From: a bacterium
GTDB lineage: Bacteria > Spirochaetota > Spirochaetia > Treponematales > UBA12059
Length of the DNA: 64,000 nt
Assembly (NCBI GenBank): GCA_035530295.1
Contig: DATKVB010000009.1
Coordinates: 13,587 to 77,586, forward strand
Direction: 5' to 3'
In this document: piece after piece, positions 12,354 through 26,504 of the stretch
Layout of the letters: the number at the start of each line of letters is the position of its first letter
Position numbering within the stretch: position 1 is the stretch's first letter
Notes under the pieces: generated by a model
Told to the model about the DNA's origin: nothing
Databases searched by the model: none
The model's input: the letters and a program-made list of their open reading frames with translations, nothing else
Position numbers and translations under genes: made by a program

Positions 12354-13616
12354 ATGAAGAGAAAGCCCGGACTGCTACTCTGTTTTGTCCTCATGGTATG
12401 CGCCCGGGTTGGTGCCCAGGGGGTATTCCCCAGCGCCTACGACCTCGTCTACAGTCTGTTCTCGCTTCAGGATCCCAACGCCGGCCTGACAACCTTCCTG
12501 TCGGCCCTGATACCGGTCGGCGGCAGTGCCGAAAGCATGGGCATGGCCTTTACCGCGGTGGCTGACGACGCCTCGTTCCTGGATCTCAATCCCTCTGCCA
12601 GCGCCGTGCAGGATCAGACCCAGTTTGCCTTCTACCACAACAACTGGATAGCCGATACCCGCATCGAAGGCATAGCGTACACGATGCGGCTCGGGACGAT
12701 CGGCCTGTCCTTGGGCGGCAAGTGGCTGTACTTGCCCTTTACCGAATATTCCGATTTCGCAGAGCGTCTGACCACCGGCTACTATTCGGAGGCGATTGGC
12801 ATTGCCAACGCATCCATACACCTCTGGCCTGGCTACTACTTCTATGGCGTGGCTCTGGGCGCCAACCTCAAGCTGGCATACCGGTCGATGCCTGACTTCT
12901 CCGATGACGCGGGCACGATCATAGCCGGGTCCGGTGCCAGCCAATCGGCTGTCGCTGTCATGGCCGACATAGGCGCGCTGACTCGGTTCAACATTGCCAA
13001 ATTGTACTCCTCCAGGAGCAAGAACTTTGCCGTGGGCCTGGCCCTGAAGAACTTCGGGCCGCCGGTTATGGGAGAGGCCCTGCCCACCGTAGCCACCGCC
13101 GGGGTAGCGTACAACTTCCTGAAGCCAATACTGATTTCAGGTGACATCAGCTTCCCCATCAACCTGGTCGATCCGTCGCTGAGCGAGCGGTTCTACTGGG
13201 GCGTTGGGTACCGGATGACCATAACGAACTTCTGGGATCTGCAGGCGGGGCTGCTGGTCAAGGGCGGCAACCCCAGGATCAGCGTCGGAGCCGCGCTCGA
13301 CTTCGCGCCACTGACGCTCGAGGTGAACTACACCCTCGACCTGACAACCCAGTTTTCTCCCCTCAACCGCATGAGCGTCGAGGCTCGTTTTGCCCTGGGA
13401 GACCTGGGGCGAGCCCAGAAGGCCGCCAAGGCGGAGGATCTGTACCTGCAGGGGCTCGACGCCTACGCAGCCGGCGACCTGGAACTGGCTATTTCATACT
13501 GGGATGAATCGCTTAAACTAAATCCATACTTCGATCCTGCGCGCGAGAATAGAGCTACCGCGCGCACCGCGCTTGAACTGAGAAAGCGCATACTCGAACT
13601 GCAGAAGCTCGAGTAG
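12354..13616 (+). CDS. outer-membrane beta-barrel protein (FadL/UPF0164-like) with C-terminal TPR extension
   Basis: 420-aa ORF with a signal peptide, the block SAESMGMAFTAVADDASFLDLNPSA and alternating beta-strand-like sequence. The C-terminus is TPR-like (AEDLYLQGLDAYAAGDLELAISYWDESLKLNPYF). Confidence 0.7.
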   Translation: MKRKPGLLLCFVLMVCARVGAQGVFPSAYDLVYSLFSLQDPNAGLTTFLSALIPVGGSAESMGMAFTAVADDASFLDLNPSASAVQDQTQFAFYHNNWIADTRIEGIAYTMRLGTIGLSLGGKWLYLPFTEYSDFAERLTTGYYSEAIGIANASIHLWPGYYFYGVALGANLKLAYRSMPDFSDDAGTIIAGSGASQSAVAVMADIGALTRFNIAKLYSSRSKNFAVGLALKNFGPPVMGEALPTVATAGVAYNFLKPILISGDISFPINLVDPSLSERFYWGVGYRMTITNFWDLQAGLLVKGGNPRISVGAALDFAPLTLEVNYTLDLTTQFSPLNRMSVEARFALGDLGRAQKAAKAEDLYLQGLDAYAAGDLELAISYWDESLKLNPYFDPARENRATARTALELRKRILELQKLE

Positions 13617-13644
13617 TACTATATTCCAACATGTGGAGAATGCG

Positions 13645-14232
13645 ATGACCGTGCTTGCCATCATTTTCAGGCTGCTTGGAGCGGCGACTTCCGTGTACAT
13701 GCTCCTGTGCATAGTCCGGGTGTTCCTGTATTGGTTCCCGACATCGGGACTGGGTCGTTCGGCCGAGATGCTCGAGCGCGTTACCGATCCGTATCTGTCG
13801 ATATGGAGCCGACTCTCGTTCCTGAAGGCCGGTGGCATTGATTTTTCGCCCATCGTGGCGCTTGCTGTCCTTTCCGGCGTATCGAGGATGTTCTCCGTAG
13901 CCTCATACGGGGCTCTGACGGTGGGACTCGTGCTGTCGTTGGTGCTCGAGATAGCGTGGGCTCCGGTCGCCTTCTTGCTGGGGTTCTTCGCGGTGCTGTT
14001 GATAGCGCGCATCATAGCCTACGCGGCCCACTGGAACAGCCTGCACCCGGTATGGCGAGCCGTCGACGCGATGATCAATCCGGTGCTTTTTAGAATCAAG
14101 CGCTTGATATATCGAGATAGGATAGTCAATTACATGCAGGGGCTGATAACCGGCGTGCTCGTGATTGCTGGCGTTCGCGTGGCGCTTGGGCTGGTCGTGG
14201 GGCTGCTGATCGGGCTCCTGCGCAGGATATAA
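13645..14232 (+). CDS. YggT-family membrane protein
   Basis: ATG at 13645 lies 6 nt after GGAG; the track start at 13633 is a GTG. Multi-TM protein with the YggT-like block TDPYLSIWSRL...GGIDFSPIVAL. Confidence 0.75.
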   Translation: MTVLAIIFRLLGAATSVYMLLCIVRVFLYWFPTSGLGRSAEMLERVTDPYLSIWSRLSFLKAGGIDFSPIVALAVLSGVSRMFSVASYGALTVGLVLSLVLEIAWAPVAFLLGFFAVLLIARIIAYAAHWNSLHPVWRAVDAMINPVLFRIKRLIYRDRIVNYMQGLITGVLVIAGVRVALGLVVGLLIGLLRRI

Positions 14233-14242
14233 AGGAAGACCA

Positions 14243-14533
14243 ATGCTGACATCAAAACAACGGGCTCACCTCTCGTCGCTGGCCAATACACTTGAACCTG
14301 TCGTGTTCCTTGGCAAGGCAGGCGCCGCAGGCGGCGTGGAGCAGGCACTCGATCGCGCGCTTACCGACCACGAGCTTATCAAGCTGCGCTTCGTCGACTT
14401 CAAGGGCGAGCGCAAGGAGCTGGCACAGCAGCTGGCTGACAAGGCCGGCGCCGACCTGGTCCGCGTCATAGGACACGTCGCCATCATGTATCGACAGAGT
14501 CCCGATCCTGAGAAGCGTGTGATCGAACCATAA
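14243..14533 (+). CDS. yhbY: YhbY/CRM-domain RNA-binding ribosome-assembly protein
   Basis: 96-aa ORF colinear with E. coli YhbY, sharing LTSKQRAHLSSLANTLEPVVFLGKAG and HELIKLRF. Confidence 0.8.
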   Translation: MLTSKQRAHLSSLANTLEPVVFLGKAGAAGGVEQALDRALTDHELIKLRFVDFKGERKELAQQLADKAGADLVRVIGHVAIMYRQSPDPEKRVIEP

Positions 14534-14543
14534 GGCACCGTGT

Positions 14544-14891
14544 ATGTCCAGACTGTTTCTCGTGATCCCCCTGCTGCTCCTCGGCGCCGGGCAGCTATCG
14601 GCTGCACTTTCCGGTAAGGCCATAGCCGCCGGGGGCTCGGCCTTCAACCTGTGTACCGCGGCTGCCTACCTGTTCCTGGCGCTTCGGGGGCTGAGCTGGG
14701 TGCTGATCGTGAGGCGCTTTCCGCTGTCGCGTGCCTATCCGGTGATGAGCCTGGGCTACATCGTTGTGCCGCTCGTGGCAGCCCTGTTCCTGGGCGACAG
14801 ACTCGAGTGGCGCACGCTCGTCGGCATGGTTCTTGTTGGGGCAGGCGTGGCTCTGGTTGGTTCCGACGATCGCACGGCGCAACACCGATGA
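14544..14891 (+). CDS. small EamA-like 4-TM protein, ArnE-like flippase subunit
   Basis: 115-aa hydrophobic ORF. Its size, topology and pairing with a second small subunit resemble ArnE/ArnF. Confidence 0.6.
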   Translation: MSRLFLVIPLLLLGAGQLSAALSGKAIAAGGSAFNLCTAAAYLFLALRGLSWVLIVRRFPLSRAYPVMSLGYIVVPLVAALFLGDRLEWRTLVGMVLVGAGVALVGSDDRTAQHR

Positions 14892-15262
14892 GCATATACC
14901 TTGTTCTTGTGGTAGTGCTTTCAGCCGCCGGCCAGGTTCTGGTCAAGGCGGGCGCAAACCTGACCCTGCCCAGACAGGATGAGGCTGCCGCCGGCCCGTT
15001 TTGGCGCCTGCTTGTCTTTGCCCGAAAGGCCATGAATCCCTGGCTTGTCGCGGGCATTGCCTGCGTCGCTCTTGTCCCATTGCTGTATACTCGCGCGCTG
15101 GCGGGTTCGGCGCTCTCCACTGTGTATGGAGCGACCGGGCTCAGCTATCCTTTGGTGATTGGGGCCAGTGCCCTCTTCTTTGGGGAAAGAATCGGCAGGA
15201 GGCAGATTGTGGGTGGCGTCCTTATCGTGGCTGGCTTTATTGTATGGAGCGGCATGCCATGA
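14888..15262 (+). CDS. small EamA-like 4-TM protein, ArnF-like flippase subunit
   Basis: Internal ATG at 14888 overlaps the upstream stop (ATGA). 124-aa hydrophobic product MSIYLVLVVVLSAAGQVLVKAG. The track's upstream extension overlaps the previous gene and is rejected. Confidence 0.6.
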   Translation: MSIYLVLVVVLSAAGQVLVKAGANLTLPRQDEAAAGPFWRLLVFARKAMNPWLVAGIACVALVPLLYTRALAGSALSTVYGATGLSYPLVIGASALFFGERIGRRQIVGGVLIVAGFIVWSGMP

Positions 15263-17307
15263 TTTCCGTATGCGTACCCAGCTACAATGGCGCCGCAACC
15301 GTGGCCGACCTGTGCCGCTCCGTGGCTGATGTCATGTCCGGGATGGACGAGGACTGGGAGTTGCTGGTCGTCCTCGACGGTTCGACCGACGCCAGCGAAT
15401 CGGTTCTGAATCCTCTGGTGCTCGATGGGACTATTGATAAGGTGATCGTGCTCGCACGGCGCTGTGGCCAGCAGCGGGCGACACTCCGCGGCATTGCGGC
15501 GGCCCGGGGAGACGTGGTCGTCACCATTGACGACGACTTTGGCCATCAGCCACGGGCCATAGCGGAGATGGTGCCGTTGCTTGACAGGAACTCGCCCGGA
15601 GGCGATGTGCTGTTTGCACTTCCATCGACGACGGGCAGGGTGGCTGCCAGAAACTGGGGAGCGGCTCTGAGATCGGCGCTGTTCAGGCTGGTTGCCGGAG
15701 CGCCAGCTGACCTTGTGCCGTCAAGTTTTCGTTTCTTCACCCGGCCATGCTCAGAGGCACTTCTGGCCAGCATCAATCAGTGCACATACCTTTCTGTCGA
15801 CCTGGTACGGCACGCCGCGCGCGTGCGCTCTGTTCCTCTCGGAGACTCGATCAGCATATCCAGCGGTCCAAGCCGCCGCCGCGGACTGTCGCTTCTGATT
15901 TCATTTCTATCACTAGGGCTGTATCTGCCTTTCGTTCCCTGTGTCCTCAGAAGGGCATTCGGCGGCATGGGCAGGATTGATGTCAGGGAGCTTCGGGGAC
16001 CGGCTGGTTGCCTGCTTGTCGTCGGCGCCGGACGCGGCCAGTGCGGCCTGATACGGCGCGGGATCGAGCATGGCCTGCGCGTGCTTGTCAGCGACCGCGA
16101 TCCCGGCGCACCTGGGGCCGGGATCGCCGAAAGGCTGCTGGTGGCGGATACCTTTGATCCGAAAGGGACGGTGTCTGCGGTCCGTGACCTTCAGTCTGAA
16201 GGCCTGCGCATCGACGGCGTCGCCACCGCCGGCACGGACCAGCCGGTGCTTACCGTCGCCGCCGTGGCCGAGGCCTTTGGCCTTGGTGGCGCCTTGCCCT
16301 ATGACGTCGCGCTCGCGGTCACCAACAAGTCGGTGATGAAGAAGCGCCTGAACGAGCTTGGCCTGCCGACCCTGGCCTGGCGGCTGGTGGGGCCGGAAGA
16401 TGCAAGCTCAGGAGCGAAGGTCGTGCGCGATGTGGCACCGGAAGGCGCCGCGGTCCTCAAGCCGATGGACAGCCAGGGGCAGCGCGGCATCTTCCTGGTG
16501 CGGAATGACGCCGAAGTCTTCGGCTACCTGCCACAGACCCTGTCGTACAGCCGCGAACCGCGCGCCATGCTGGAGTGCTTCTACCCGTCGGAAGAAGTAA
16601 CCTTGAGCGGCTGGGTTCATAGAGGCCGGCTGTATCCGCTGCTCCTGACCGACCGGGCGACCATGACCTCCGGGCCGCACATAGGAATCTGCCCGGCGCA
16701 CCGGTATCCGTCAAGACACTTCAGGAACCACGGAGCGGAGATTGTATCGATATGCTCCAGGTTCGTCGAAGGCTTCGGCATTCAGTCAGGCCCCATCTAT
16801 GTGCAGCTGCTGATAGGCTCCGAAGGAGTAGTGATAAACGAGGTGGCGTGCAGGATAGGTGGCGCCTACGAGGAAGTGCTGGTGCCGGCTCTGACCGGCG
16901 TCGATATCCTTGATTTGCAGCTTGAGCTGGCGATGCACGGCAGCATCGATCCAGAGGCCGTGGTCGCGCTTGAGCGTGCCAGCCGGCAATGGCCGCCCCG
17001 AGGCTTTGCTACGACTGTACTCGCCTTTACCGGAGAGGGGCGAGTCGGGCGGGTAGGTGACCAGGCCGTGCTTGCAGCCTTGCCCGGTGTCCGGGGCGCC
17101 GGATACTTGCTTGATGCCGGTACCCATATAGGCTCGCTTGTCAACTCGACCGGCAGGGCAGCCTGGGGTGTGATCACGGCCACAAGCCGTGCGCATATCA
17201 ATCGCCGCATCCATCGATTCTATGACGCCCTGGATGTCGAATCGGATTCCGGGGTGAATCTGGTCCGCGACCTGCGGAGCGCCGCCCTGCACTTGGAGGA
17301 TTCATGA
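15259..17307 (+). CDS. GT2 polyprenyl-phosphate glycosyltransferase (ArnC-like) fused to an ATP-grasp domain
   Basis: ATG at 15259 overlaps the upstream stop (ATGA). The N-terminal GT2 blocks are CVPSYNG, VVLDGSTDAS, RRCGQQRA and TIDDDFGHQP. TM helices follow, then a C-terminal ATP-grasp-like region (LLVVGAGRGQ, VLKPMDSQGQRGIFLV). Confidence 0.75.
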   Translation: MISVCVPSYNGAATVADLCRSVADVMSGMDEDWELLVVLDGSTDASESVLNPLVLDGTIDKVIVLARRCGQQRATLRGIAAARGDVVVTIDDDFGHQPRAIAEMVPLLDRNSPGGDVLFALPSTTGRVAARNWGAALRSALFRLVAGAPADLVPSSFRFFTRPCSEALLASINQCTYLSVDLVRHAARVRSVPLGDSISISSGPSRRRGLSLLISFLSLGLYLPFVPCVLRRAFGGMGRIDVRELRGPAGCLLVVGAGRGQCGLIRRGIEHGLRVLVSDRDPGAPGAGIAERLLVADTFDPKGTVSAVRDLQSEGLRIDGVATAGTDQPVLTVAAVAEAFGLGGALPYDVALAVTNKSVMKKRLNELGLPTLAWRLVGPEDASSGAKVVRDVAPEGAAVLKPMDSQGQRGIFLVRNDAEVFGYLPQTLSYSREPRAMLECFYPSEEVTLSGWVHRGRLYPLLLTDRATMTSGPHIGICPAHRYPSRHFRNHGAEIVSICSRFVEGFGIQSGPIYVQLLIGSEGVVINEVACRIGGAYEEVLVPALTGVDILDLQLELAMHGSIDPEAVVALERASRQWPPRGFATTVLAFTGEGRVGRVGDQAVLAALPGVRGAGYLLDAGTHIGSLVNSTGRAAWGVITATSRAHINRRIHRFYDALDVESDSGVNLVRDLRSAALHLEDS

Positions 17308-18290
17308 ACCCGCGCCGCTACCCGTTGATTGCCGTCTCTGTGATCATGCTTGGTGCGTCGCTGTCGTCATGCCAGAAGAGCCAGTCGGGACTACGGATTG
17401 CGGAGCAATTCGGTCTGGCCTACGCGCCGGTGACGATAGCCAGGCAACTGGGTTTCATGGATGAGGCGCTCAAGGAGGCCGGGCTGCCGGACAAGGTGGA
17501 ATGGCTACGGCTGGCTAATACCGCTACCATTCGGGAGGCCGCGCTGGCGGGCAATGTCGATGCCGCCTTCATGGGAATACCGCCGTACCTCATCAGCAAG
17601 GCCGGCGGCATGACCTGGCGCATCGCCGCGGGGCTCAACCAGTCGCCTAACGCGCTGGTCTCGGGCAGCGCCCGCATTCAGAACCTTGACGACTTCAAGC
17701 CCGAGGATCGCATTGTCCTGCCGCAGCCGGGCAGCATCCAGCATATATTGCTGGCCATGGGCGCACAGCGCCTTCTGGGCGACGCGAAGCGTTTCGACAA
17801 CCAGCTTGTCACCATGAGCCACCCCGATGGCATGCAGGCGCTGCTCGCGGGCAAGGAGATCGTCGCCCATTTTACATCGTCGCCTTATCTGGCTCTTGAA
17901 CTGAAGCAGCCGGGCATCCACCAGATACTGGACGGGCGGACCTGTTTCGGGGGGCCGTATACCTTCATCGTCACCGTCGCCACAGACAAACTGGCCCAGA
18001 CGCGCCCGCGGGTATACCGGGCCTTCATGGCAGGGCTACGGAAGGGCATAGATTATGTGCGCGAGCATCCGGAAGAGAGCGCCAGGATCCTTGCACCCCT
18101 GTACTCGATGGATGTCGAGACCGTCATGGCGCTGCTTGGCGAACAGGGTAACGAGTATGGCACGACTGTCCTGGGTTTGGGGCGCTTCGTCGACTTCATG
18201 AAGGAGACCGGCTATCTGCCCGAGAAATTCAGCTATGGCGACGACCTGTACTGGGATCCCGCGGTCGCTCGTGGCGACGTGCGTCAGTGA
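17304..18290 (+). CDS. ABC transporter substrate-binding lipoprotein (NitT/TauT, NMT1-like)
   Basis: 328-aa ORF with the lipobox LSSC and SsuA/TauA/NMT1-like sequence. The ATGA overlap couples it to the upstream gene. Confidence 0.75.
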   Translation: MNPRRYPLIAVSVIMLGASLSSCQKSQSGLRIAEQFGLAYAPVTIARQLGFMDEALKEAGLPDKVEWLRLANTATIREAALAGNVDAAFMGIPPYLISKAGGMTWRIAAGLNQSPNALVSGSARIQNLDDFKPEDRIVLPQPGSIQHILLAMGAQRLLGDAKRFDNQLVTMSHPDGMQALLAGKEIVAHFTSSPYLALELKQPGIHQILDGRTCFGGPYTFIVTVATDKLAQTRPRVYRAFMAGLRKGIDYVREHPEESARILAPLYSMDVETVMALLGEQGNEYGTTVLGLGRFVDFMKETGYLPEKFSYGDDLYWDPAVARGDVRQ

Positions 18291-19042
18291 GCCTTTTACT
18301 GATACCCCTCGCGCTCGCGGGCTGGCAGGCGCTGGCCATGAGCGGCGCGGTCTCGCCACTGCTCGTGCCCGGACTGGACGCCATAGCCGTCGCCTTGTGG
18401 AGGGACCTGATCCACGGCACCCTGTCGTACCAGCTGCTATTTTCACTTGGCCTTGTCGGAGCGGGGACAATTCTTGGAGCGTTCTTCGCGGTGATCCTGG
18501 CAGCCATCGCATCACTCGGCCGCGAGGCACTGCGCAGCGTCCGCCTGCTCACCGCCCTCTTGCATCCACTGCCCGGCATAGCCTTGCTTCCACTTGTCGT
18601 GCTCTGGGCTGGCACTGGCACTCCCGCGGTGCTCCTTGTGATGATTCATGCCGCCCTGTGGCCGGTGTATCTGAACCTGCAGACCGGGCTTGACGAAATT
18701 CCACAGCGATACCGCGAGATGACGCGCAACTGGGAACTGCGGCGCGCCGGAATATTCATGCATGTCATCGTGCCCGCGGTCTTCCCCTCCATGTTGTCAG
18801 GGCTTCGTACCGCCTGGGCCAGATCCTGGCGCGCGCTTATTGCGGCGGAGATGGTCTTTGGCGCTGCGGGCCATTTTGGTGGCATAGGCTGGTACCTCTT
18901 CGAGCGCCGGGTGTACATGGACACGCCGGGGCTCTACGCCGGGCTCTTCATGGTTATGGCGGCTGGCGTGCTGATGGATGCGCTGCTGTTCGGTTCTCTC
19001 GAACGAATTACCGCACGCCGCTGGGGACGGGATACGCGATGA
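18287..19042 (+). CDS. ABC transporter permease (NitT/TauT family)
   Basis: 251-aa multi-TM ORF with a BPD-type permease pattern. GTGA overlap with the upstream gene. Confidence 0.8.
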   Translation: MSLLLIPLALAGWQALAMSGAVSPLLVPGLDAIAVALWRDLIHGTLSYQLLFSLGLVGAGTILGAFFAVILAAIASLGREALRSVRLLTALLHPLPGIALLPLVVLWAGTGTPAVLLVMIHAALWPVYLNLQTGLDEIPQRYREMTRNWELRRAGIFMHVIVPAVFPSMLSGLRTAWARSWRALIAAEMVFGAAGHFGGIGWYLFERRVYMDTPGLYAGLFMVMAAGVLMDALLFGSLERITARRWGRDTR

Positions 19043-19806
19043 ATCGGCCAATAATCGAATTCCGCGATGTGACCTTTGGCTACGGCGCCACTGATACGGT
19101 GCTTCGAGACTGTTCGGTCTCGCTGGAGCGCGGTTCCTTTGTTGTCCTCCTTGGCCCAAGCGGATGCGGCAAAAGCACACTCTTGAGATTGGCCGCCGGG
19201 TTCCTGCGTCCCCGCACCGGGAGCGTCCACTTCGATGGCAAGGAGATCCTTGCGCCCGATCGGCGTCGCATCCTTATATTCCAGGAACAGGACCAGTTGT
19301 TCCCCTGGAGCAGGCTCCTGGCCAATACGGCGCTTCCGCTCCTGTGGGGGCCTGATCGATGTTCGCGTTCCGAGGCGGAGGACCGTGCCCGTGACGCACT
19401 TTCGCAGGTAGGTCTGGCAGAGAACCTGAATGATTTTCCGCACCAGATGTCCGGCGGCATGAAACAGCGGGCGGTCCTGGCTCGAGCCCTGGCGGTAGGA
19501 GCCGAGGCGCTCCTGCTCGACGAGCCGTTCGCGAGCCTCGACGCCTTGAGCCGGGAGAGTCTGCAGGAGACGCTGGTCAGCGCATGGGCGCGGCACGGGT
19601 CAACCGTCCTGTTCGTCACCCATGACATTCGTGAGGCCGTGCGCATTGGGGGCGAGCTATGGTTTCTGCACAACGCGGGACAGTCCGGCCAGATAGAGCG
19701 CATCAAGCTGCCTGGCGGATCGCCTCAGGGCGGAGCGCTGCGCGATCTGGACACGCCAGAAGCCATATCGGTAGTCAAATCGATACGCGAACGTTTGACG
19801 CGGTAG
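19039..19806 (+). CDS. ABC transporter ATP-binding protein (NitT/TauT family)
   Basis: Walker A GPSGCGKST, signature MSGGMKQR and Walker B LLLDEPF. ATGA overlap with the permease gene. Confidence 0.9.
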   Translation: MNRPIIEFRDVTFGYGATDTVLRDCSVSLERGSFVVLLGPSGCGKSTLLRLAAGFLRPRTGSVHFDGKEILAPDRRRILIFQEQDQLFPWSRLLANTALPLLWGPDRCSRSEAEDRARDALSQVGLAENLNDFPHQMSGGMKQRAVLARALAVGAEALLLDEPFASLDALSRESLQETLVSAWARHGSTVLFVTHDIREAVRIGGELWFLHNAGQSGQIERIKLPGGSPQGGALRDLDTPEAISVVKSIRERLTR

Positions 19807-21374
19807 AGTGTGACCTTCCAGTCACGTTTTCCGCTGTACGCGACTATTCGCATCCCATATACGGGTGAATCAAAACTGCCCACCGCGACACAGTCCTGCC
19901 TCAGGAATCGCTGCATATCGTCGTAGTATGCGGCGACGTTGCCATACAGGATGTTCCAGACCGGCCGCTCCTTATATATCAGGTCCATCTCCACAGGGTA
20001 CAGGATGTGCGTGATATTCCGACTACCCATGTACGAGGCAAAATCGAGCCGAGCGGCCTTCAGGTATGCCAGGTTGCGAAAGTCCAGAAGCGCACCATAT
20101 GGAAGTGCGTATTCGGTATTCAGGTTGCCGAGCACCCTGAGCTGCCGGCCCTCCGCTCGCAGCAGTGGCTCTTCATCCGCGAGCAAGTGCTTGATGGTGG
20201 CTTCATAGTCGGCGTAGCTCTCTGTGCCAGTGCGGCGGACATCGACCAGATTGTACGCCGTCGTACCTGCTACCAGTACCATAAGCGCCGCGGCCACCCA
20301 GGGCGCGGCCCTTGTGCCGCGATGGGGACTGATGTGCGATAGGAGCAGCGCCAGCGCCAGATAGCACAACGGAATCTCGAGCGCGAACAGCGGCGCTCCG
20401 TATTTTCCAAGCATCACCAACGCGGTGTTGAATCCCGCCAGCGCGAAGAAGGGTATCAGCAGCCTCCTGTTAGCGCTGACTATGGCCAGCGCGAGCGAAG
20501 CGACAATCGACAGACTATACAGCGGCATAAGCGGCCGCATCTCAGGTATGAAATAGGTTCCGGAATAGCGGTACCACAATTTCTGATACCAGTCAGGAAA
20601 GCGCACCAGCTTTATATACCACGGCACCCCGACCTCGACGCTGTCACCAAAAGCTATGTAGTCATGAAGGAAGTCGGGATTCATCCACAGGCTCAGCCCG
20701 ATGAATACCAGTGCGCCCAGAGCGCACGCCAGAAAGAATCCTGCCAGCGTCGAAAATCGGCGCCGCAGCGTCAGTATGATCCCGGTCAGTGCCGCCGCTA
20801 TGAGGAATGCCGCTGGATGGATGCCTATGGCTACCGCAACCATCAGCCCTGACTGCAGACCCCTGGCGAACCCTCCCGGTTCGCCTGCCTTGGGGAAGAG
20901 CCGCAGTGCCGCCAACACGAGCATGAGCAGCAGGGCGATCTCCTGTCGTCCCAGATGGGCGGCGCTGATGAACTGTGGGTCCAGCGCAAGCAGTATCGTG
21001 AAGCAGCCGGCCCGCTGATTTCTGTTGTGTTCCGGCAGGATCCTAAGGAGCAGTTGCCGAAAGGCAAGCAGCGCGGCGATACCCAGGGTCAGCGACAACA
21101 GGCGTGCCTGGAGGATTCCATACCCGCAGACAGCAAAAACGATAGCCTGCATGGCGTGATACAGAATTTTGACGGCGTGCGGTGCGCGCGGATACAGATC
21201 AAAGAACGGCTCGGTAGCCGTGATGGTTCCCTGGTTCAGCCAGGCTCTGGTAAGACCGCCGAGCCATGCTTCATCGCTGTGTATGAATGGGTAATAAAGC
21301 AAAGTAACTATATTGAAAAAGAGATATATAAATAAAAATAAATAGATAAAGTTGGCATGTAACCACTTGCTCAT
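19725..21374 (-). CDS. GT-C fold membrane glycosyltransferase (ArnT/PMT-like)
   Basis: Multi-TM protein with an early loop motif HSDEAWLGG similar to the DE motif of ArnT/PMT enzymes. ATG at 21374 follows GAAGG. The 3' end overlaps the convergent ABC ATPase gene by 82 bp. Confidence 0.65.
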   Translation of the reverse strand: MSKWLHANFIYLFLFIYLFFNIVTLLYYPFIHSDEAWLGGLTRAWLNQGTITATEPFFDLYPRAPHAVKILYHAMQAIVFAVCGYGILQARLLSLTLGIAALLAFRQLLLRILPEHNRNQRAGCFTILLALDPQFISAAHLGRQEIALLLMLVLAALRLFPKAGEPGGFARGLQSGLMVAVAIGIHPAAFLIAAALTGIILTLRRRFSTLAGFFLACALGALVFIGLSLWMNPDFLHDYIAFGDSVEVGVPWYIKLVRFPDWYQKLWYRYSGTYFIPEMRPLMPLYSLSIVASLALAIVSANRRLLIPFFALAGFNTALVMLGKYGAPLFALEIPLCYLALALLLSHISPHRGTRAAPWVAAALMVLVAGTTAYNLVDVRRTGTESYADYEATIKHLLADEEPLLRAEGRQLRVLGNLNTEYALPYGALLDFRNLAYLKAARLDFASYMGSRNITHILYPVEMDLIYKERPVWNILYGNVAAYYDDMQRFLRQDCVAVGSFDSPVYGMRIVAYSGKRDWKVTLYRVKRSRIDLTTDMASGVSRSRSAPP

Positions 21375-21475
21375 TTCGCCTTCTTGGTGTAAATTCATAT
21401 CGATAATTATATAGTATCAATTCACTATCTTATAGTTCTCGCTGCAAGAATATAATGCTGTGCGGAGGAATGACA

Positions 21476-22402
21476 ATGCGCAATTTCAGAAGATTGACGG
21501 TACTGACCCTGGCGGCCACACTGGTCGCCGTGCTGTTGGGCGCGTGCGGGCCGACCTATGGCCAGAGCGGCAAACAGATCATATCGGCAAAGCAAGCCCG
21601 CGCGATGCTCGCCGAAGGTGCCGCGGTCCTCGTTGACGCCAGGAATGCCGATGAATATGCCAAAGAGCATGTCGCCAAGGCCGTTTGCATCGCCAGGGAT
21701 GACATCATGGTCAACACGCCATATCCTAACCTGGTAGCCGGCAAGGCCCAGATCGAGCAAGCCCTGGGCAACCGTGGTATCGACGACGCGGCGCAGGTCA
21801 TAATCTACGACGCCAACCAGAACATGGACGCGGCGCGGCTCTGGTGGACCATGGTCGCCTACGGTCACGACGCCGGGAAGGTCATAGTCGTCAGCGGCGG
21901 CCTCGATGCGCTGAAGTCGGCAGGAGTTACGCTCGAATCAGGAATGCCGACCATCCAGCCCGTGGCATATACCGCCAAGGACCTGAACCCGGCCGTACTG
22001 GCCACGAAGGCGGAAGTCGAGGCCCAGGTCAACAACCCGGATCCAAAGACAGTCATCGTCGATACCAGAACCGATGAGGAATTCGCGGCGGGCACCATCC
22101 CTGGTTCCATACATATCAACTTTACCAGGAACAACTTCTTTAAAGGTGGAGAGTATAGACCGGTTTCGCAGATCAGGGCCATCTATATCGAAAAGGAAAT
22201 CGATCCTTCGAAGACAGTCATCCTGTTCTGCAAGACTTCCATTCGTGGTGCCGAATCTTTCCTTGCCCTGTACAACGCCGGCTACCGCAATCTGAAATTG
22301 TATGATGGTGCCTGGGTTGAATGGTCGGGCAATGCAGCCGTGCCTGTGCAGGCACCTGTGACTACGGATCTTCCCGTACTGAATACTCAGGACGGATCTT
22401 AG
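21476..22402 (+). CDS. periplasmic tandem-rhodanese sulfurtransferase lipoprotein
   Basis: ATG at 21476 lies 7 nt after GGAGGA. Lipobox LLGACG, two rhodanese-like halves and the active-site loop FCKTSIRG. Confidence 0.8.
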   Translation: MRNFRRLTVLTLAATLVAVLLGACGPTYGQSGKQIISAKQARAMLAEGAAVLVDARNADEYAKEHVAKAVCIARDDIMVNTPYPNLVAGKAQIEQALGNRGIDDAAQVIIYDANQNMDAARLWWTMVAYGHDAGKVIVVSGGLDALKSAGVTLESGMPTIQPVAYTAKDLNPAVLATKAEVEAQVNNPDPKTVIVDTRTDEEFAAGTIPGSIHINFTRNNFFKGGEYRPVSQIRAIYIEKEIDPSKTVILFCKTSIRGAESFLALYNAGYRNLKLYDGAWVEWSGNAAVPVQAPVTTDLPVLNTQDGS

Positions 22403-22429
22403 TAGATAGCATCTCTCAAGGAGGGAACC

Positions 22430-23332
22430 ATGAATCGAATCAAGCGTGTACTGGCAGTGCTTCTGCTGGTGGGATTGTCCACCGCGTTGTATGCACAGAA
22501 TCCAGCGACCAGCACTCTGGCCACACAGAAGGCCACTGAGTATCTGGCCAACATGCCAGCCGACAGCTATAAGATATCCGAAGCCGCCTTCATAGAAAAA
22601 GTGAAAGCCGGCGAGAACATCATGATCCTTGATATCAGGCAGGCAGCCGACTACAACAAGGGCCATGTCAAGGGCGCCGTCAACGCGCCCTTTGGCCCGG
22701 ACATGGGTTCGTTCCTGGACAAGTTGCCCAAGGACAAGCCCGTGATGCTGTATTGCTATACCGGTCAGACCGCTGGCCAGACCGTGGTGCTTCTCAATCT
22801 GGCAGGCGTCCAGGCTCGCTCGGTCAACCTCGGCTTTACCTTGGGCATTTCCAAGGTTTCCGGAGTCGAGGCCTACATTGAGACCACCGCCCGCGCATTC
22901 CCCGCCGCTGGCGCGACATACGATCCGGCTCTGAAGAAGATCTTCGCCGATTATTTCGCAGGCCTTGCCAAGGTCAATGGCACCATCTATGCGAATAATA
23001 TCATTGCAGAAGATGAGGCGAAGAAGTTGATCGACGCCAAGGATCCCAGCATCCAGGTCGTCTCTGTTCGCGGTGCCGCCGACTATGCCAAGGGCCATAT
23101 CAAGGGCGCGATCAATGTTCCATGGGGCAAAGGCATGCAGGCTGGATTCTCCGTGCTTCCCAAGAACAAGAAGCTGATCGTGTATTGCTACACCGGCCAG
23201 ACCGCCGGTCAGACCGTCGCCGCGCTTCGCGTGATGGGCTATGACGCCGTCAGCCTCCGTGGTGGTATGGGCATGCCGTCCAACGCTCCCAGTGGCTGGG
23301 CGAACAAGGGCTTCCCGGTCGTAACCGACTAA
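22430..23332 (+). CDS. secreted tandem-rhodanese domain protein
   Basis: RBS AAGGAGGG and a signal peptide. Two rhodanese domains each carry the loop YCYTGQTAGQT. Confidence 0.8.
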   Translation: MNRIKRVLAVLLLVGLSTALYAQNPATSTLATQKATEYLANMPADSYKISEAAFIEKVKAGENIMILDIRQAADYNKGHVKGAVNAPFGPDMGSFLDKLPKDKPVMLYCYTGQTAGQTVVLLNLAGVQARSVNLGFTLGISKVSGVEAYIETTARAFPAAGATYDPALKKIFADYFAGLAKVNGTIYANNIIAEDEAKKLIDAKDPSIQVVSVRGAADYAKGHIKGAINVPWGKGMQAGFSVLPKNKKLIVYCYTGQTAGQTVAALRVMGYDAVSLRGGMGMPSNAPSGWANKGFPVVTD

Positions 23333-23427: not shown

Positions 23428-25455
23428 TTACCTCTTTTGTTCGAAGTGGGAAAACTCCATACTGAAACTGGCGCGGCCTTGGGAGACGGAGCGGAGGCTT
23501 GTCGAGAAGCCGAACATCACGGCGAGTGGCGCCTCCGCGTGAATCACATCGATAGCGGCGCGACTGTCGGAGCCATGGATAAGGCCACCACGCTGTGACA
23601 GAAGGCTCATCACGTCACCCATGTAGTCCTTCGGGGTCATGATGTCGACCTTCATCACCGGCTCGAGCTGGACCGGTCCGGCCTTGCGGCATGCCTCGTC
23701 AAAAGCCATCGATGCACAGGCCTCGAACGCGAACGGCGTCGCCGCCAGCTCGTCGTAGTCTATGCCTACCAGTTTTACCCCGATGTCGACGCAGGGGTAG
23801 CCGAGCACGATGCCGCCACCAAAGGCATTGGTCACCGCGCGCTCTATCGCGTCGTACAGCTCCTCGGGGACCTTGTTGTCGCGCATCGCCTTTTCATAGA
23901 CATTGCCCGATCCGCGCGCCAACGGCTCCACAACAAGCGTGACCCCCGCGGTGATCTCCTTGCCGGCCATGTTCCGTGAGTATGATTCGGCGTGCTGGAC
24001 TTTCTTGGTGATCGACTCGCGGTATGACACCTGGGGGTTGCCCACCTTGGCGCCAACCTTGAAGTCCCTGAGTATACGGGTAACAAGCACATCGAGATGC
24101 AGTTCGCCCATGCCACGTATCACGAGCTGGCCCGTTTCCTCGTCGTCGCCGGTCTGGAATGTTGGATCCTCCATGGAGAGGATGTCGAGCGTCTCCTTGA
24201 GTTTTTCCCTGTCCGATACGGTCTTGGGTTCTATGGCCACCGTAATCACTGGCTCCGGAAAGTGCATATGCTCAAGCAGCATCGGCCAGCCCTCTGAGCC
24301 GACGGTATCGCCGGTCTGGGCCACCTTCATGCCGACGAATACCGCGATGTCGCCGGCCTGGAGCTCATCGATCGCCTCGCTCTTGTTGGCGTGCATGCGC
24401 AGGATGCGTGTGACGCGTTCTCGCTTCTTCTTTCCTATGTTGAAGACCGTGCCCGCGGTTTTGACTATGCCGGAATACATGCGCACATAGCACAGCGGGC
24501 CAGCCTCGCGGTCGTACTGCACCTTGAAGACGAGCCCCAGCGGATTGCCTTTGGGATCGCACGGCAGGTCGAAGTGCTCCTCTTTCTTGGGATTGAATGC
24601 CTTCACCGGCGGAACGTCTGTAGGCGAAGGCAGATAGTCGACTACCGCATCGAGCAGGGGCTGCACGCCGATATTGCGCCGCGACGCTCCGCAGAGCACC
24701 GGCACGATCTTGCGGGCAATCGTCTGGTCGCGCAGAGCCGTGCGCAGCAACTCGGCGGGAATAGCCTCGCCGGATAGATAGAGCTCGGTGATCTCGTCGG
24801 AGTGCGAAGCGACCGCGTCGACCAGCTTGTCACGCCATGCGGCAGCGAGTTCCGTCATCGCCGGTCCTACCGGTGTGCGCGTAATCGTCTGGCCGCCTTC
24901 TTCGGCATCCCAGCGCAATTCCTCCATCGTGAGAAGATCAACCGCTCCCTCGAATCCGCCTTCCTTGCCGATAGGTAGCTGTACCGGCACCGCGGCCGTC
25001 GCGAACTTCTCGCGTATCTCTTCGACGGCGCCGTAGAAGTCGGCTCCCAAGCGGTCCATCTTGTTGATGTAGGCGACACGCGGAACATGGTAGCGGTCGG
25101 CCTGGTGCCACACCGTCTCGCTCTGCGGCTCGACGCCGCCGACGGCGCAGAACACCGCGACCGCGCCGTCAAGCACACGCAACGAGCGCTCCACCTCGGC
25201 GGTAAAGTCTACGTGCCCCGGCGTGTCGATTATGTTGATCTGGTGCTGCCGCCAGTACGTTGTCGTTGCGGCACTCTGTATGGTTATGCCGCGTTCCTGC
25301 TCCTGCTCCATCCAGTCCATGACGGCCTCACCGTCGTCGACTTCGCCGAGCTTGTAGGTCTTGCCCGAATAGAAGAGTATGCGCTCCGTCGTCGTGGTTT
25401 TGCCCGCGTCGATGTGCGCCATGATGCCGATATTTCGTGTTGAATCAAGGTTCAT
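23428..25455 (-). CDS. fusA: elongation factor G
   Basis: Start [32 protein letters not shown] at 25455, preceded by GGAG at 7 nt. GTPase and EF-G domains are present throughout. The track's 45-codon N-terminal extension is rejected. Confidence 0.9.
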
Positions 25456-25574
25456 GCTGTGGCTCCGGGCGCCACTATAGACGGAAAAGCGTCGCGCTTG
25501 CAAGATTGAGGCGATGCATCCAGCACCTTGCGGCCGATGGTCAGGGCAGACTAGTATCGCGTGCGAGGTGCCGC

Positions 25575-26504
25575 GTGAAAAAAGAAGCAATCCTGGTTGT
25601 CGTGTCCTATGCCCTGGTGTACGTCGTGTGGGGTTCCACGTATTTCTTCATCAAGGCAGCCGTGGAGACGATACCGCCAACCCTCGTGGTAGGGTTCCGG
25701 TTTCTGTTCGGATCCATCATGCTTGCCAGTATCGCCTGGGCCAAGGGAGGCCTGAGAGAACTGCCGGGCATCAGGGAAATCGCCGGTGCCGCGCTCATTG
25801 GCGTCTTATTGCTGCTTCTCGGAAACGGCCTTATCACTATTTCCGAACGATCCATTCCAAGCTGGATGGCGAGCATCGTGGTAGCGTGCATGCCCATCTA
25901 TGTGGCCTTCTTCAATATGCTTCTGTACCGAACCAAGGTGTCCGGAATCCGGCTTGTGGGCGCGGCGGCCGGAGTGGTGGGCGTTGGACTGTTGCTGTTC
26001 CAGGGCACGACCAATGCGGCTTCCTTCGGTCCGGCTCTCGTACTGGCAGTGATCGGGGCCTTGTCGTGGGGTTTCGGCTCGAGCCTTGCCAAGGCTATCC
26101 CAAAGCCCAAGGATGTGCTGGTGTCCACCGCCATCCAGATGCTGGTCGCGGGCAGCGTCGCGTTGATCATTGGTGCCGGTTCGGGCGTGAACATCCTGTC
26201 AGCCCTCTCGCAGGCATCTGCCTGGTCAATTTTTTCACTCGCCTATCTCGCCCTTCTTGGAGGGCTCACCTTGGTAGCATACAATCACTTGCTTGTCGTC
26301 GAGCCAAGCTTTCGGGTTTCCAGCTACTCGCTGGTAAATCCCCTGATCGCGGTTGTCCTCGGCATGGCCGCCGGGGAGCGGGCTTCGCGCTTCTTTGCTA
26401 TTGGATCTCCGCTCGTTCTCGTCGGCCTGGTAATCATTCTGTATGGCGACGCGATCAGGGATTACTGGGTCAAGCGGGGCACGCGTGGTGAACGCCGCAT
26501 CTGA
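25575..26504 (+). CDS. EamA/DMT-family transporter
   Basis: GTG at 25575 after GAGGTG. 309-aa, roughly 10-TM protein with [11 protein letters not shown] typical of EamA domains. The track start at 25437 overlaps the fusA start region. Confidence 0.75.

Follow-up and report, generated by a model that had tools for sequence, protein, structure and literature searches.

The 64-kb stretch of contig DATKVB010000009.1 analyzed here (GenBank assembly GCA_035530295.1, Treponematales lineage UBA12059; referred to below as the window) carries a cassette in which genes for the lipid-linked transfer of a sugar and an embedded ATP-binding cassette (ABC) importer adjoin genes for two exported rhodaneses. 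It is highly probable that the cassette represents a conserved functional unit joining lipid-carrier glycosylation to exported rhodaneses, and for the complete pathway that we propose below, from the synthesis of an amino sugar to its transfer outside the cell, we estimate a probability of about 45%. A preliminary description of the DNA had let the unit end at position 21374. This boundary was not borne out, since the two rhodanese genes (21455-23332) also belong to the cassette, as indicated by a rhodanese gene at a distance of at most 2.5 kb from the gene of the GT-C-type glycosyltransferase in 56 of 58 related loci. The genes of the cassette are as follows (aa, amino acids; GT2, family 2 glycosyltransferase).

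g1, 14544-14891, plus strand: 115 aa, four transmembrane helices, ArnE/ArnF-like half-size EamA/SMR protein; putative flippase subunit
g2, 14888-15262, plus strand: 124 aa, second half-size EamA/ArnF-like subunit with four transmembrane helices; 4-nt overlap with g1
g3, 15259-17307, plus strand: 682 aa, ArnC/GtrB/DPMS-like GT2 (aa 1 to ~205) fused to an ATP-grasp of the L-amino-acid-ligase type (aa ~250-682)
g4, 17304-18290, plus strand: lipoprotein substrate-binding protein (SBP) of the NMT1/SsuA (NitT/TauT) family with an LSSC lipobox
g5, 18287-19042, plus strand: ABC permease with GTG start, BPD_transp_1
g6, 19039-19806, plus strand: ABC ATPase, best match TauB
g7, 19725-21374, minus strand: 549-aa GT-C glycosyltransferase of the PMT/ArnT superfamily with ~11 transmembrane helices and a C-terminal extracytoplasmic domain
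rhodanese 1, 21455-22402, plus strand: exported lipoprotein with tandem rhodanese domains; probable start at 21476
rhodanese 2, 22430-23332, plus strand: exported protein with signal peptide and two predicted active rhodanese domains

Recomputation of the coordinates reproduced the seven open reading frames (ORFs) g1 to g7 as they had been reported before, together with the five 4-nt start/stop overlaps that chain g1 to g6 (ATGA at 14888, 15259, 17304, and 19039; GTGA at 18287) and the convergent 3' overlap of 82 nt between g6 and g7 (19725-19806). The longest ORF of g7 starts at 21398 (557 aa), but position 21374 was taken as its start because the database copy has 549 aa. A protein identical to the g3 product is encoded on a 392-kb contig of a metagenome-assembled genome, and among the GTDB species representatives, an uncultured Treponema sp. 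comes nearest, with 78% identity over the ATP-grasp domain.

Conservation of the cassette

An alignment-based scan with one genome per GTDB species detected at least 552 loci with relatives of the ATP-grasp domain. The best 80 of these at least 552 loci were analyzed with profile hidden Markov models built from the window and the fetched loci, and 88 genome-derived loci were surveyed overall; locus counts were taken over those loci that had enough flanking sequence. In 64 of 76 loci from Spirochaetota, Bacillota, Calditrichota, and Chloroflexota, the ABC genes come immediately after the ATP-grasp gene, and where the block is inverted, they move together with the genes for GT2 and ATP-grasp. 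The GT-C gene is located within 9 kb in 59 of 65 loci, and cassette loci contain at least one (54/61) and mostly two (50/61) rhodanese genes.

The gene order of GT2, ATP-grasp, SBP, permease, ATPase, convergent GT-C, and two rhodaneses recurs in Sediminispirochaeta, Alkalispirochaeta, Desulfitobacterium, Halanaerobium, Acetobacterium, Calditrichales, and Flexilinea. The contexts of g3 homologues with 65%, 52%, 43%, 37%, and 32% identity all exhibit the same order, and so do those of free-standing ATP-grasp homologues of Desulfitobacterium. Taken together, the cassette is present in Spirochaetota, Halanaerobiales, many Clostridia (e.g., Acetobacterium, Desulfitobacterium, Geosporobacter, and Acidaminobacter), Calditrichales, and Anaerolineae. 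Recurrence of the same order in other phyla, at 32 to 65% protein identity, puts the arrangement far beyond what chance would produce.

Fortuitous adjacency of the importer, which the preliminary description had considered for the case that the ABC genes were absent from homologous clusters, does not apply: the ABC genes are in place in the 64 loci mentioned above, although about one locus in six does without the importer. The survey for fusions of GT2 and ATP-grasp that had been suggested at the same time revealed a neighborhood conserved across four phyla. The fusion itself is present in 13 of the 88 loci, and the two domains are encoded by separate genes in 70 of the 71 unfused loci.

A description of the cassette was not found in the literature searched for the cassette or its parts; the sole hint was a "glycosyltransferase" among the STRING partners given for YedE of Slackia (PMC5322559). 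NCBIfam contains a curated model for rhodanese-domain proteins near glycosyltransferases, NF045521 (rhoda_near_glyco), to which the two window rhodaneses show weak matches (36 and 51 bits versus 145). Its curators may have seen a related association, for which no publication was found.

Identity of the enzymes and the transporter

The previous domain calls for g1 to g7, i.e., ArnE/ArnF-like proteins with four transmembrane helices, GT2::ATP-grasp fusion, NitT/TauT-type importer, and GT-C, were all upheld by family and fold searches. Both g1 and g2 match EamA in Pfam (g1, E = 2.7e-5), and their best NCBIfam models are ArnE and ArnF with 17 to 38 bits versus cut-offs of 92 to 99 (for g1, 37.6 bits with ArnF and 33 bits with ArnE, both below the cut-off). 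Pairs of this type are kept in the spirochaete cassettes.

The N-terminal domain of g3 matches Glycos_transf_2 (71 bits, residues 1-113), and its top matches in the PDB are ArnC (best, E = 4e-12), GtrB (5eke), and DPMS (5mlz). With 47.1 bits versus a cut-off of 529 for the ArnC equivalog NF007986, the protein is homologous to ArnC but not its equivalog. A DxD-type motif (DDD, aa 91-93) is present, and two short hydrophobic helices (aa 209-234; 15883-15960) directly follow the GT2 domain; they are not built as a membrane span in the AF2 model, which has a predicted local distance difference test (pLDDT) score of 91. The GT-A fold, the DxD motif, and the membrane-interface element qualify the domain as a glycosyltransferase of the polyprenyl-phosphate type with a putative lipid acceptor.

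For the C-terminal domain of g3, Foldseek retrieved L-amino-acid ligases (LAL) as best matches (3vot with a TM score of 0.86, RizA, and BacD/YwfE), and also 4dim. The Pfam search returned ATPgrasp_N and LAL_C2, the latter with 26.4 bits versus a cut-off of 29.4, and LAL_C2 is precomputed in most homologues. The domain is, judged from these fold and family matches, an ATP-grasp with a LAL C-terminal domain and hence of the carboxylate-amine ligase type. The fusion with GT2 and the adjacency to WecE in related loci suggest that its amine substrate is an amino sugar rather than a free L-amino acid.

The importer genes gave matches to NMT1 (33 bits versus 20.5), the SsuA family (70.6 bits versus a cut-off of 163.5), and SsuA in the PDB (E = 0.002) for g4, to BPD_transp_1 (64 bits) for g5, and to ABC_tran (108 bits) and, as the best NCBIfam model, TauB (181 bits versus 357) for g6. 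All matches of the window importer to NCBIfam equivalogs of known substrate, among them NtrB (83 bits versus 209), were below the cut-off. The lipobox Cys of the SBP is conserved in 67 of 70 orthologues, which share many invariant aromatic, acidic, and His residues. By family assignment, g4 to g6 are a NitT/TauT-type importer consisting of an NMT1/SsuA-type SBP, one permease, and one ATPase.

The AF2 model of g7 (pLDDT 91) displays a GT-C fold, and Foldseek matched it to AglB, STT3, ArnT (5ezm), ALG9, and Emb with a probability of 1.0 and TM scores of ~0.55. A Pfam match to PMT_2 is present in 19 of 36 family members. For g7 itself, the 557-aa ORF matched only GT87 (E = 0.0024, below the cut-off) and the 549-aa form no Pfam family, NCBIfam gave no match, and the profile of the GT-C family had no significant match to any solved GT-C among the PDB sequences. 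The first outer loop contains the motif HSDEAW (21264-21281), whose residues D34 and E35 are invariant in the family; according to the model, the catalytic Asp-Glu loop and the C-terminal domain would be located outside the membrane.

Sugar, sulfur, and selenium genes in related loci

In relatives outside the spirochaetes, a sugar 4-aminotransferase gene is located directly upstream of the GT2 gene. The enzyme is of the WecE type (497 bits versus an NCBIfam cut-off of 375) and scores far below the cut-off for ArnB (209 bits versus 631). The absence of ArnB noted in the preliminary description therefore holds for the window, which lacks any DegT-family gene within its 64 kb, but not for the relatives, in which the WecE-type aminotransferase takes the ArnB-like step. 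ArnA and ArnD, by contrast, are indeed missing from both the window cluster and the conserved members of the 88 genome-derived loci. RmlB has a fixed position in 23 loci (433 to 472 bits versus 365), and an RmlA-like gene is sometimes present in cassettes outside the spirochaetes. The aminotransferase and the EamA pair are almost mutually exclusive (30 versus 8 of 47 loci).

The cassettes outside the spirochaetes additionally carry split halves of YeeE/YedE (PmpAB type) with TusA between them, a thioredoxin reductase (TrxR)-like flavoprotein, and a LysR regulator, which in 10 cassettes has its best match with LysR_Sec_metab. Genes for YeeE or TusA are absent from the 64-kb window. Comparative genomics has connected YedE family proteins and LysR_Se with selenium (PMC5322559), and YeeE/TsuA-type proteins have been linked to the import of thiosulfate or zero-valent sulfur (PMC11582611).

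The genes selC-selA-selB adjoin the cassette only in three Desulfitobacterium loci of one lineage (L007, L025, and L031), and none of them is present in the window. In the locus of Desulfitobacterium dichloroeliminans (L007:2407-7958), the genes for tRNA-Sec, SelA, and SelB are found just upstream of the cassette, with a group II intron including its reverse transcriptase in between. A general link to the genes for selenocysteine (Sec) decoding was rejected because the adjacency is confined to this lineage. An equivalence with the SAO selenoprotein ABC system (SaoX/P/A; bioRxiv 10.1101/2022.07.06.499078) was likewise rejected, since only the transporter family is common to both and rhodanese, glycosyltransferase, and ATP-grasp are lacking there.

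Several Halanaerobium loci (L033, L042, L056, L057, L061, L075, and L077) contain a second NitT/TauT-type ABC importer located 3' of the rhodanese pair, which forms an operon with a third rhodanese gene on the opposite strand. Due to this shared operon, the transporter family is linked to rhodaneses independently of the ATP-grasp.

The exported rhodaneses and their C termini

Both window rhodaneses match the Pfam domain Rhodanese (118 and 111 bits) and have export signals and intact active-site Cys loops, i.e., a single loop in rhodanese 1 (C259-KTSIRG) and CYTGQTA loops at C109 and C253 in rhodanese 2. Rhodanese 1 ends with QDGS (codons 22388-22399; stop to 22402), and its C-terminal arm is devoid of Cys. 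Throughout its family, a linker of variable length and composition is followed by D-x-S-COOH, an end found in 45 of 45 locus copies and in 120 of 120 best database homologues, down to 46% identity, versus 9 of 1,631 other ORFs. An exhaustive search of 1.8 billion representatives showed that the tail is confined to the nearest subfamily and absent from more distant rhodaneses. Desulfitobacterium and Peptococcaceae have no gene of the rhodanese 1 type, and their rhodanese 2-type paralogue has gained a linker and the end GD[HKF]S-COOH. A D-x-S end on the SBP was observed in two near-identical loci only (L008 and L014) and taken as chance. No in-frame TGA was found at the active-site Cys of the rhodaneses; the stops observed were the gene ends and those of the second rhodanese gene of a Halanaerobiales locus (L061:16918-17400), a pseudogene with several in-frame stops.

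The Acetobacterium/Eubacteriaceae loci L034, L046, L048, L051, L054, L062, L086, and L089 encode a 565-aa cytoplasmic protein ~2.5 to 4.5 kb after the GT-C, in the place that the second exported rhodanese occupies in other lineages. Judged from its N-terminal sequence alone, it appears to be a fusion of a pyridine-nucleotide-disulfide reductase and a rhodanese (CoA-disulfide-reductase-like).

A GT-C of the same family adjoins rhodanese 1 homologues in three of three genome contexts and D-x-S rhodaneses in 44 of the 46 metagenome loci whose sequence was long enough. The metagenome scan, which started from rhodanese 1, added 80 loci, 72 of which end with D-x-S, one with GGGCG, and seven with APGG-TGA. 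Three close relatives of rhodanese 1 have the alternative ends SGGCGG, APGG, and PGGG. The Cys-tipped variants recall SoxY, whose GGCGG-COOH end is an established sulfur-carrying arm (PMC6067878). The sites in question are the following.

L093:945-1859 (protein P0351): Cys-tipped rhodanese 1 relative, SGGCGG-COOH; no GT-C seen nearby
L127:8001-8843 plus tail: Cys-tipped rhodanese 1 relative, GGGCG-COOH; no GT-C seen nearby
L094:3460-3510: soda-lake TGA/hairpin site
L095:8949-8999: soda-lake TGA/hairpin site
L096:6451-6501: soda-lake TGA/hairpin site
L097:4985-5035: soda-lake TGA/hairpin site
L098:6151-6201: soda-lake TGA/hairpin site
L113:740-790: soda-lake TGA/hairpin site

The seven loci with APGG-TGA originate from soda-lake metagenomes, and the TGA is followed by a second stop either at once or one codon later. 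A 6-bp hairpin is located 17 to 19 nt after the TGA, with compensatory changes in three of six pairs and a loop that begins with NGU; we take it to resemble a bacterial selenocysteine insertion sequence (SECIS) element. These features are suggestive only, and the seven loci are related, but they make the GG-UGA proteins candidates for exported rhodaneses that end with a selenocysteine (GG-U-COOH).

No GT-C, GT2, or ATP-grasp gene was seen in flanks of up to 8 kb at the nine loci whose tails have a Cys or a putative Sec at the tip. L127 is free of these genes over 8 kb upstream and 6.4 kb downstream, and L099 over 7.9 kb downstream. The order in L095, L097, and L098 (rhodanese 2-TrxR-YedE-TusA-YedE / LysR-TusA-rhodanese 1) represents the usual frame minus the glycosylation block. 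Tail type and presence of the GT-C are associated with a Fisher P value of 0.005 when two independent lineages are counted, in a comparison whose non-D-x-S side is a small sample of two or three lineages with several short contigs.

Proposed pathway and alternative explanations

We propose that the pathway starts with an NDP-4-amino-4,6-dideoxyhexose. The Bacillota cassette itself encodes RmlA, RmlB, and WecE, and the gene context points to this sugar at least in Bacillota; for the window, the amino-sugar genes would have to reside elsewhere in the genome. The ATP-grasp would N-acylate the 4-amine of the sugar with an amino acid or another small carboxylate, and the ABC importer would salvage this acyl co-substrate, a role indicated by the ABC genes traveling with the ATP-grasp gene as a block, even in inverted orientation. 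By analogy with the Arn and Gtr/Pmt systems, the GT2 would then load the sugar onto polyprenyl phosphate, g1 and g2 would flip the lipid-linked sugar across the membrane, and g7 would hand it to an acceptor outside the cell. This sequence of lipid-linked sugar formation, ligation, flipping, and GT-C transfer was already outlined in the preliminary description; its parts were confirmed, and it was kept as the most economical reading.

Since the cassette pairs a sugar pathway with two exported rhodaneses, the sugar is more likely attached to an exported rhodanese than to the envelope. The likeliest acceptor would be the Ser at the end of the rhodanese 1 tail (D-x-S-COOH), a tentative assignment based on co-location and the terminal motif. 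The glycosylated tail might then work like the GGCGG-COOH arm of SoxY, as a flexible extension with a functional tip, and the system would serve to capture or pass on sulfane sulfur, thiosulfate, or selenium instead of modifying envelope charge. A rather doubtful extension of this idea is a "chalcogen arm," in which an N-aminoacyl amino sugar (e.g., N-cysteinyl) on the D-x-S Ser would replace the encoded Cys or Sec of the sister proteins. N-cysteinyl amino sugars have precedents in bacillithiol and mycothiol.

Apart from the small sample of alternative tails, several observations weigh against the proposed pathway and acceptor. RmlA, RmlB, and WecE are found neither in the 64-kb window nor in the other spirochaete loci, whose sugar may be a different one. 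Free-standing GT2s (median, 250 aa) are mostly devoid of a strongly hydrophobic segment, and for this reason we infer the use of polyprenyl phosphate only from the homology to ArnC and the presence of the GT-C. Twelve of 76 loci (~16%, or about one in six) have no ABC importer, the cassette LysRs score 189 to 239 bits versus the LysR_Sec_metab cut-off of 250, two D-x-S loci have no GT-C within 8 kb, and the Acetobacterium/Eubacteriaceae loci keep the GT-C without a D-x-S-tailed rhodanese in the locus.

The latter loci would be accommodated if the N-acyl amino sugar were transferred to a non-protein extracytoplasmic acceptor, or if the polyprenyl-phosphate sugar were itself the end product, which the rhodaneses would load with sulfane sulfur or selenium. 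The product would be a small-molecule acceptor anchored in the membrane, e.g., a thiol-bearing glycolipid, and the D-x-S tail would have a different use, e.g., docking to the GT-C, rhodanese 2, or the transporter. This explanation draws on the same gene-context evidence as the glycosylated rhodanese tail, and it provides the thiophilic acceptor that rhodaneses require and that is not otherwise encoded. We nevertheless consider it doubtful, as neither the invariant C-terminal Ser (120/120) that tracks the GT-C nor the Cys- or Sec-tipped tails at sites without GT-C would be explained.

The importer-free loci could also be read as a sign that the cassette is a mosaic of independent units that are co-regulated by sulfur supply, namely an importer for sulfonate, taurine, or another sulfur compound, rhodaneses for thiosulfate, and an unrelated glycosylation operon, with neither a substrate nor a product in common. 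The best matches of the ABC parts with TauB, SsuC, and the SsuA family would fit such a mosaic, as would the second ABC-plus-rhodanese unit in Halanaerobium and Acetobacterium loci and the increase of Halanaerobium rhodaneses with thiosulfate (PMC5497025). However, wherever the ABC genes occur, they come immediately after the ATP-grasp gene, in many cases with stop and start codons that overlap, and an inversion takes them along with GT2 and ATP-grasp; the same gene order persists in four phyla at 32 to 50% identity, and g6 and the GT-C gene overlap convergently in the spirochaete versions. A mosaic is accordingly regarded as unlikely.

Unlikely as well, finally, is a role along the lines of the preliminary description, i.e., an Arn-like pathway that puts a sugar and an imported small molecule on an envelope lipid or glycan and thereby changes surface charge and sensitivity to antimicrobial peptides, with the rhodaneses as bystanders: the named proteins closest to the g3 N-terminal domain, g1/g2, and g7 are ArnC, ArnE/F, and ArnT, and the triad of GT2, flippase, and GT-C follows the known logic of Arn, Gtr, and CsbB-GtcA-YfhO, but most cassettes reside in monoderm Bacillota and Chloroflexota, which have no lipid A, and in the Bacillota they lie amid genes for sulfur and selenium trafficking. 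ArnA and ArnD were never present in the loci surveyed, and the regulators encoded with the cassettes belong to the sulfur/selenium LysR type (below the cut-off of the selenium family). The GT-C is tied more faithfully to the rhodanese pair and YedE-TusA-TrxR than to GT2 and ATP-grasp, and L091, L125, and L155 exhibit the order YedE-TusA-YedE-TrxR-rhodanese 1-rhodanese 2-GT-C with no GT2 nearby.

Genomic neighborhood of the window locus

Upstream of g1 (12354-14533), the window encodes a UPF0164 protein, whose family is presumably Treponema-specific, a YGGT protein, and a YhbY/CRM RNA-binding protein. The YhbY/CRM gene stops 10 nt short of g1, and for this reason g1 may be co-transcribed with housekeeping genes. 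The upstream neighbors of the cassette are different in every related locus. The rhodanese pair is followed by a full-length EF-G paralogue (23428-25590, minus strand) and an EamA transporter with 10 transmembrane helices (25437-26504, plus strand). Their ORFs overlap divergently when the longest starts are taken, and the true starts are probably internal.

The convergent 3' overlap of the ABC ATPase and GT-C genes recurs in the spirochaete versions with a length of 37 to 128 nt. On the GT-C side, the overlap of the window falls into a non-conserved tail that is modeled with low confidence (pLDDT <50 for residues 530-549). The overlaps in the relatives are located as follows.

L001: 14409-14536
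L003: 14540-14580
L004: 14585-14679
L006: 14567-14603

An Rfam search that covered the window and the upstream regions of seven cassettes detected no riboswitch or other RNA family, and a scan for promoters and terminators yielded nothing above background.

Significance

If our reading is correct, a cassette of at least several hundred anaerobe species links glycosylation to the acquisition of sulfur or selenium, a function without description in the literature searched. Its carriers include Halanaerobium, which is implicated in sulfide souring, Desulfitobacterium, Acetobacterium, and spirochaetes of guts and sediments. The cassette would then offer a candidate system of bacterial protein glycosylation that is dedicated to a single substrate and recognizes the C-terminal sequon D-x-S-COOH, and the pair of ATP-grasp and ABC importer would gain a role in the N-acylation of a 4-amino sugar, in place of the formylation in Arn. 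Should the chalcogen arm exist, it would represent a new kind of glycan-borne prosthetic group for an extracytoplasmic relay of sulfur or selenium. The sister tails GGCGG and GG-UGA point to a possible new class of selenoproteins. Even under a minimal reading, annotations such as "ArnT family" or "aliphatic sulfonate transporter" are misleading for the prediction of phenotypes.

Comparison with known systems

With the Arn pathway, the cassette shares an ArnC-like GT2, paired half-size EamA/SMR-like proteins with four transmembrane helices, a convergent GT-C of the ArnT/PMT superfamily and, in relatives outside the spirochaetes, a sugar 4-aminotransferase; a further common trait would be the N-acylation of the 4-amine before lipid loading. 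However, the acylating enzyme is an ATP-grasp ligase in the slot of the ArnA formyltransferase, ArnA and ArnD are lacking, and the precursor would be dTDP-4-keto-6-deoxyglucose, as indicated by RmlB and WecE in relatives, instead of the UDP-Ara4O of Arn. The embedded ABC importer, the exported rhodanese partners, and the predominance of hosts without lipid A are further differences, and the window proteins score far below the cut-offs of all Arn equivalog models. Four defining features of Arn thus fail, namely ArnA, ArnD, the equivalence of ArnB, and the lipid A context.

A precedent for the fusion is Cj1438 of Campylobacter jejuni (PMC11800379), a single polypeptide with a GT2 and an ATP-grasp, the latter of which forms an amide bond on a sugar. 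Its GT2 is a polymerizing capsule transferase that is separated from the ATP-grasp by a middle domain, and its TupA-like ATP-grasp forms amides between the GlcA carboxylate and serinol phosphate or ethanolamine phosphate, whereas the ATP-grasp of the cassette is of the L-amino-acid-ligase type; GT-C, importer, and rhodanese have no counterpart in the Cj1438 system. The split YeeE/YedE and TusA genes in related loci correspond to the YeeE/TsuA-TusA and PmpAB systems of sulfur import, a likeness that does not extend to the window. Like SoxY, rhodanese 1 is an exported protein with a flexible C-terminal arm, and rare relatives end with GGCGG or GGGCG, but the window protein ends with QDGS and has a rhodanese instead of a SoxY fold, and Sox enzymes are not present.

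The most general resemblance is that to the three-component systems GtrA/GtrB/GtrC, CsbB/GtcA/YfhO, and Ppm1/Pmt, in which a GT2 forms a polyprenyl-phosphate monosaccharide, a small flippase moves it, and a GT-C transfers the sugar outside the membrane; the invariant Asp-Glu in the first outer loop of the GT-C is shared with PMT. Compared to these systems, the cassette adds an ATP-grasp ligase, an importer, and sugar-amination genes, its GT-C has a C-terminal domain of its own, and the proposed acceptor would be the C-terminal Ser of a single enzyme.

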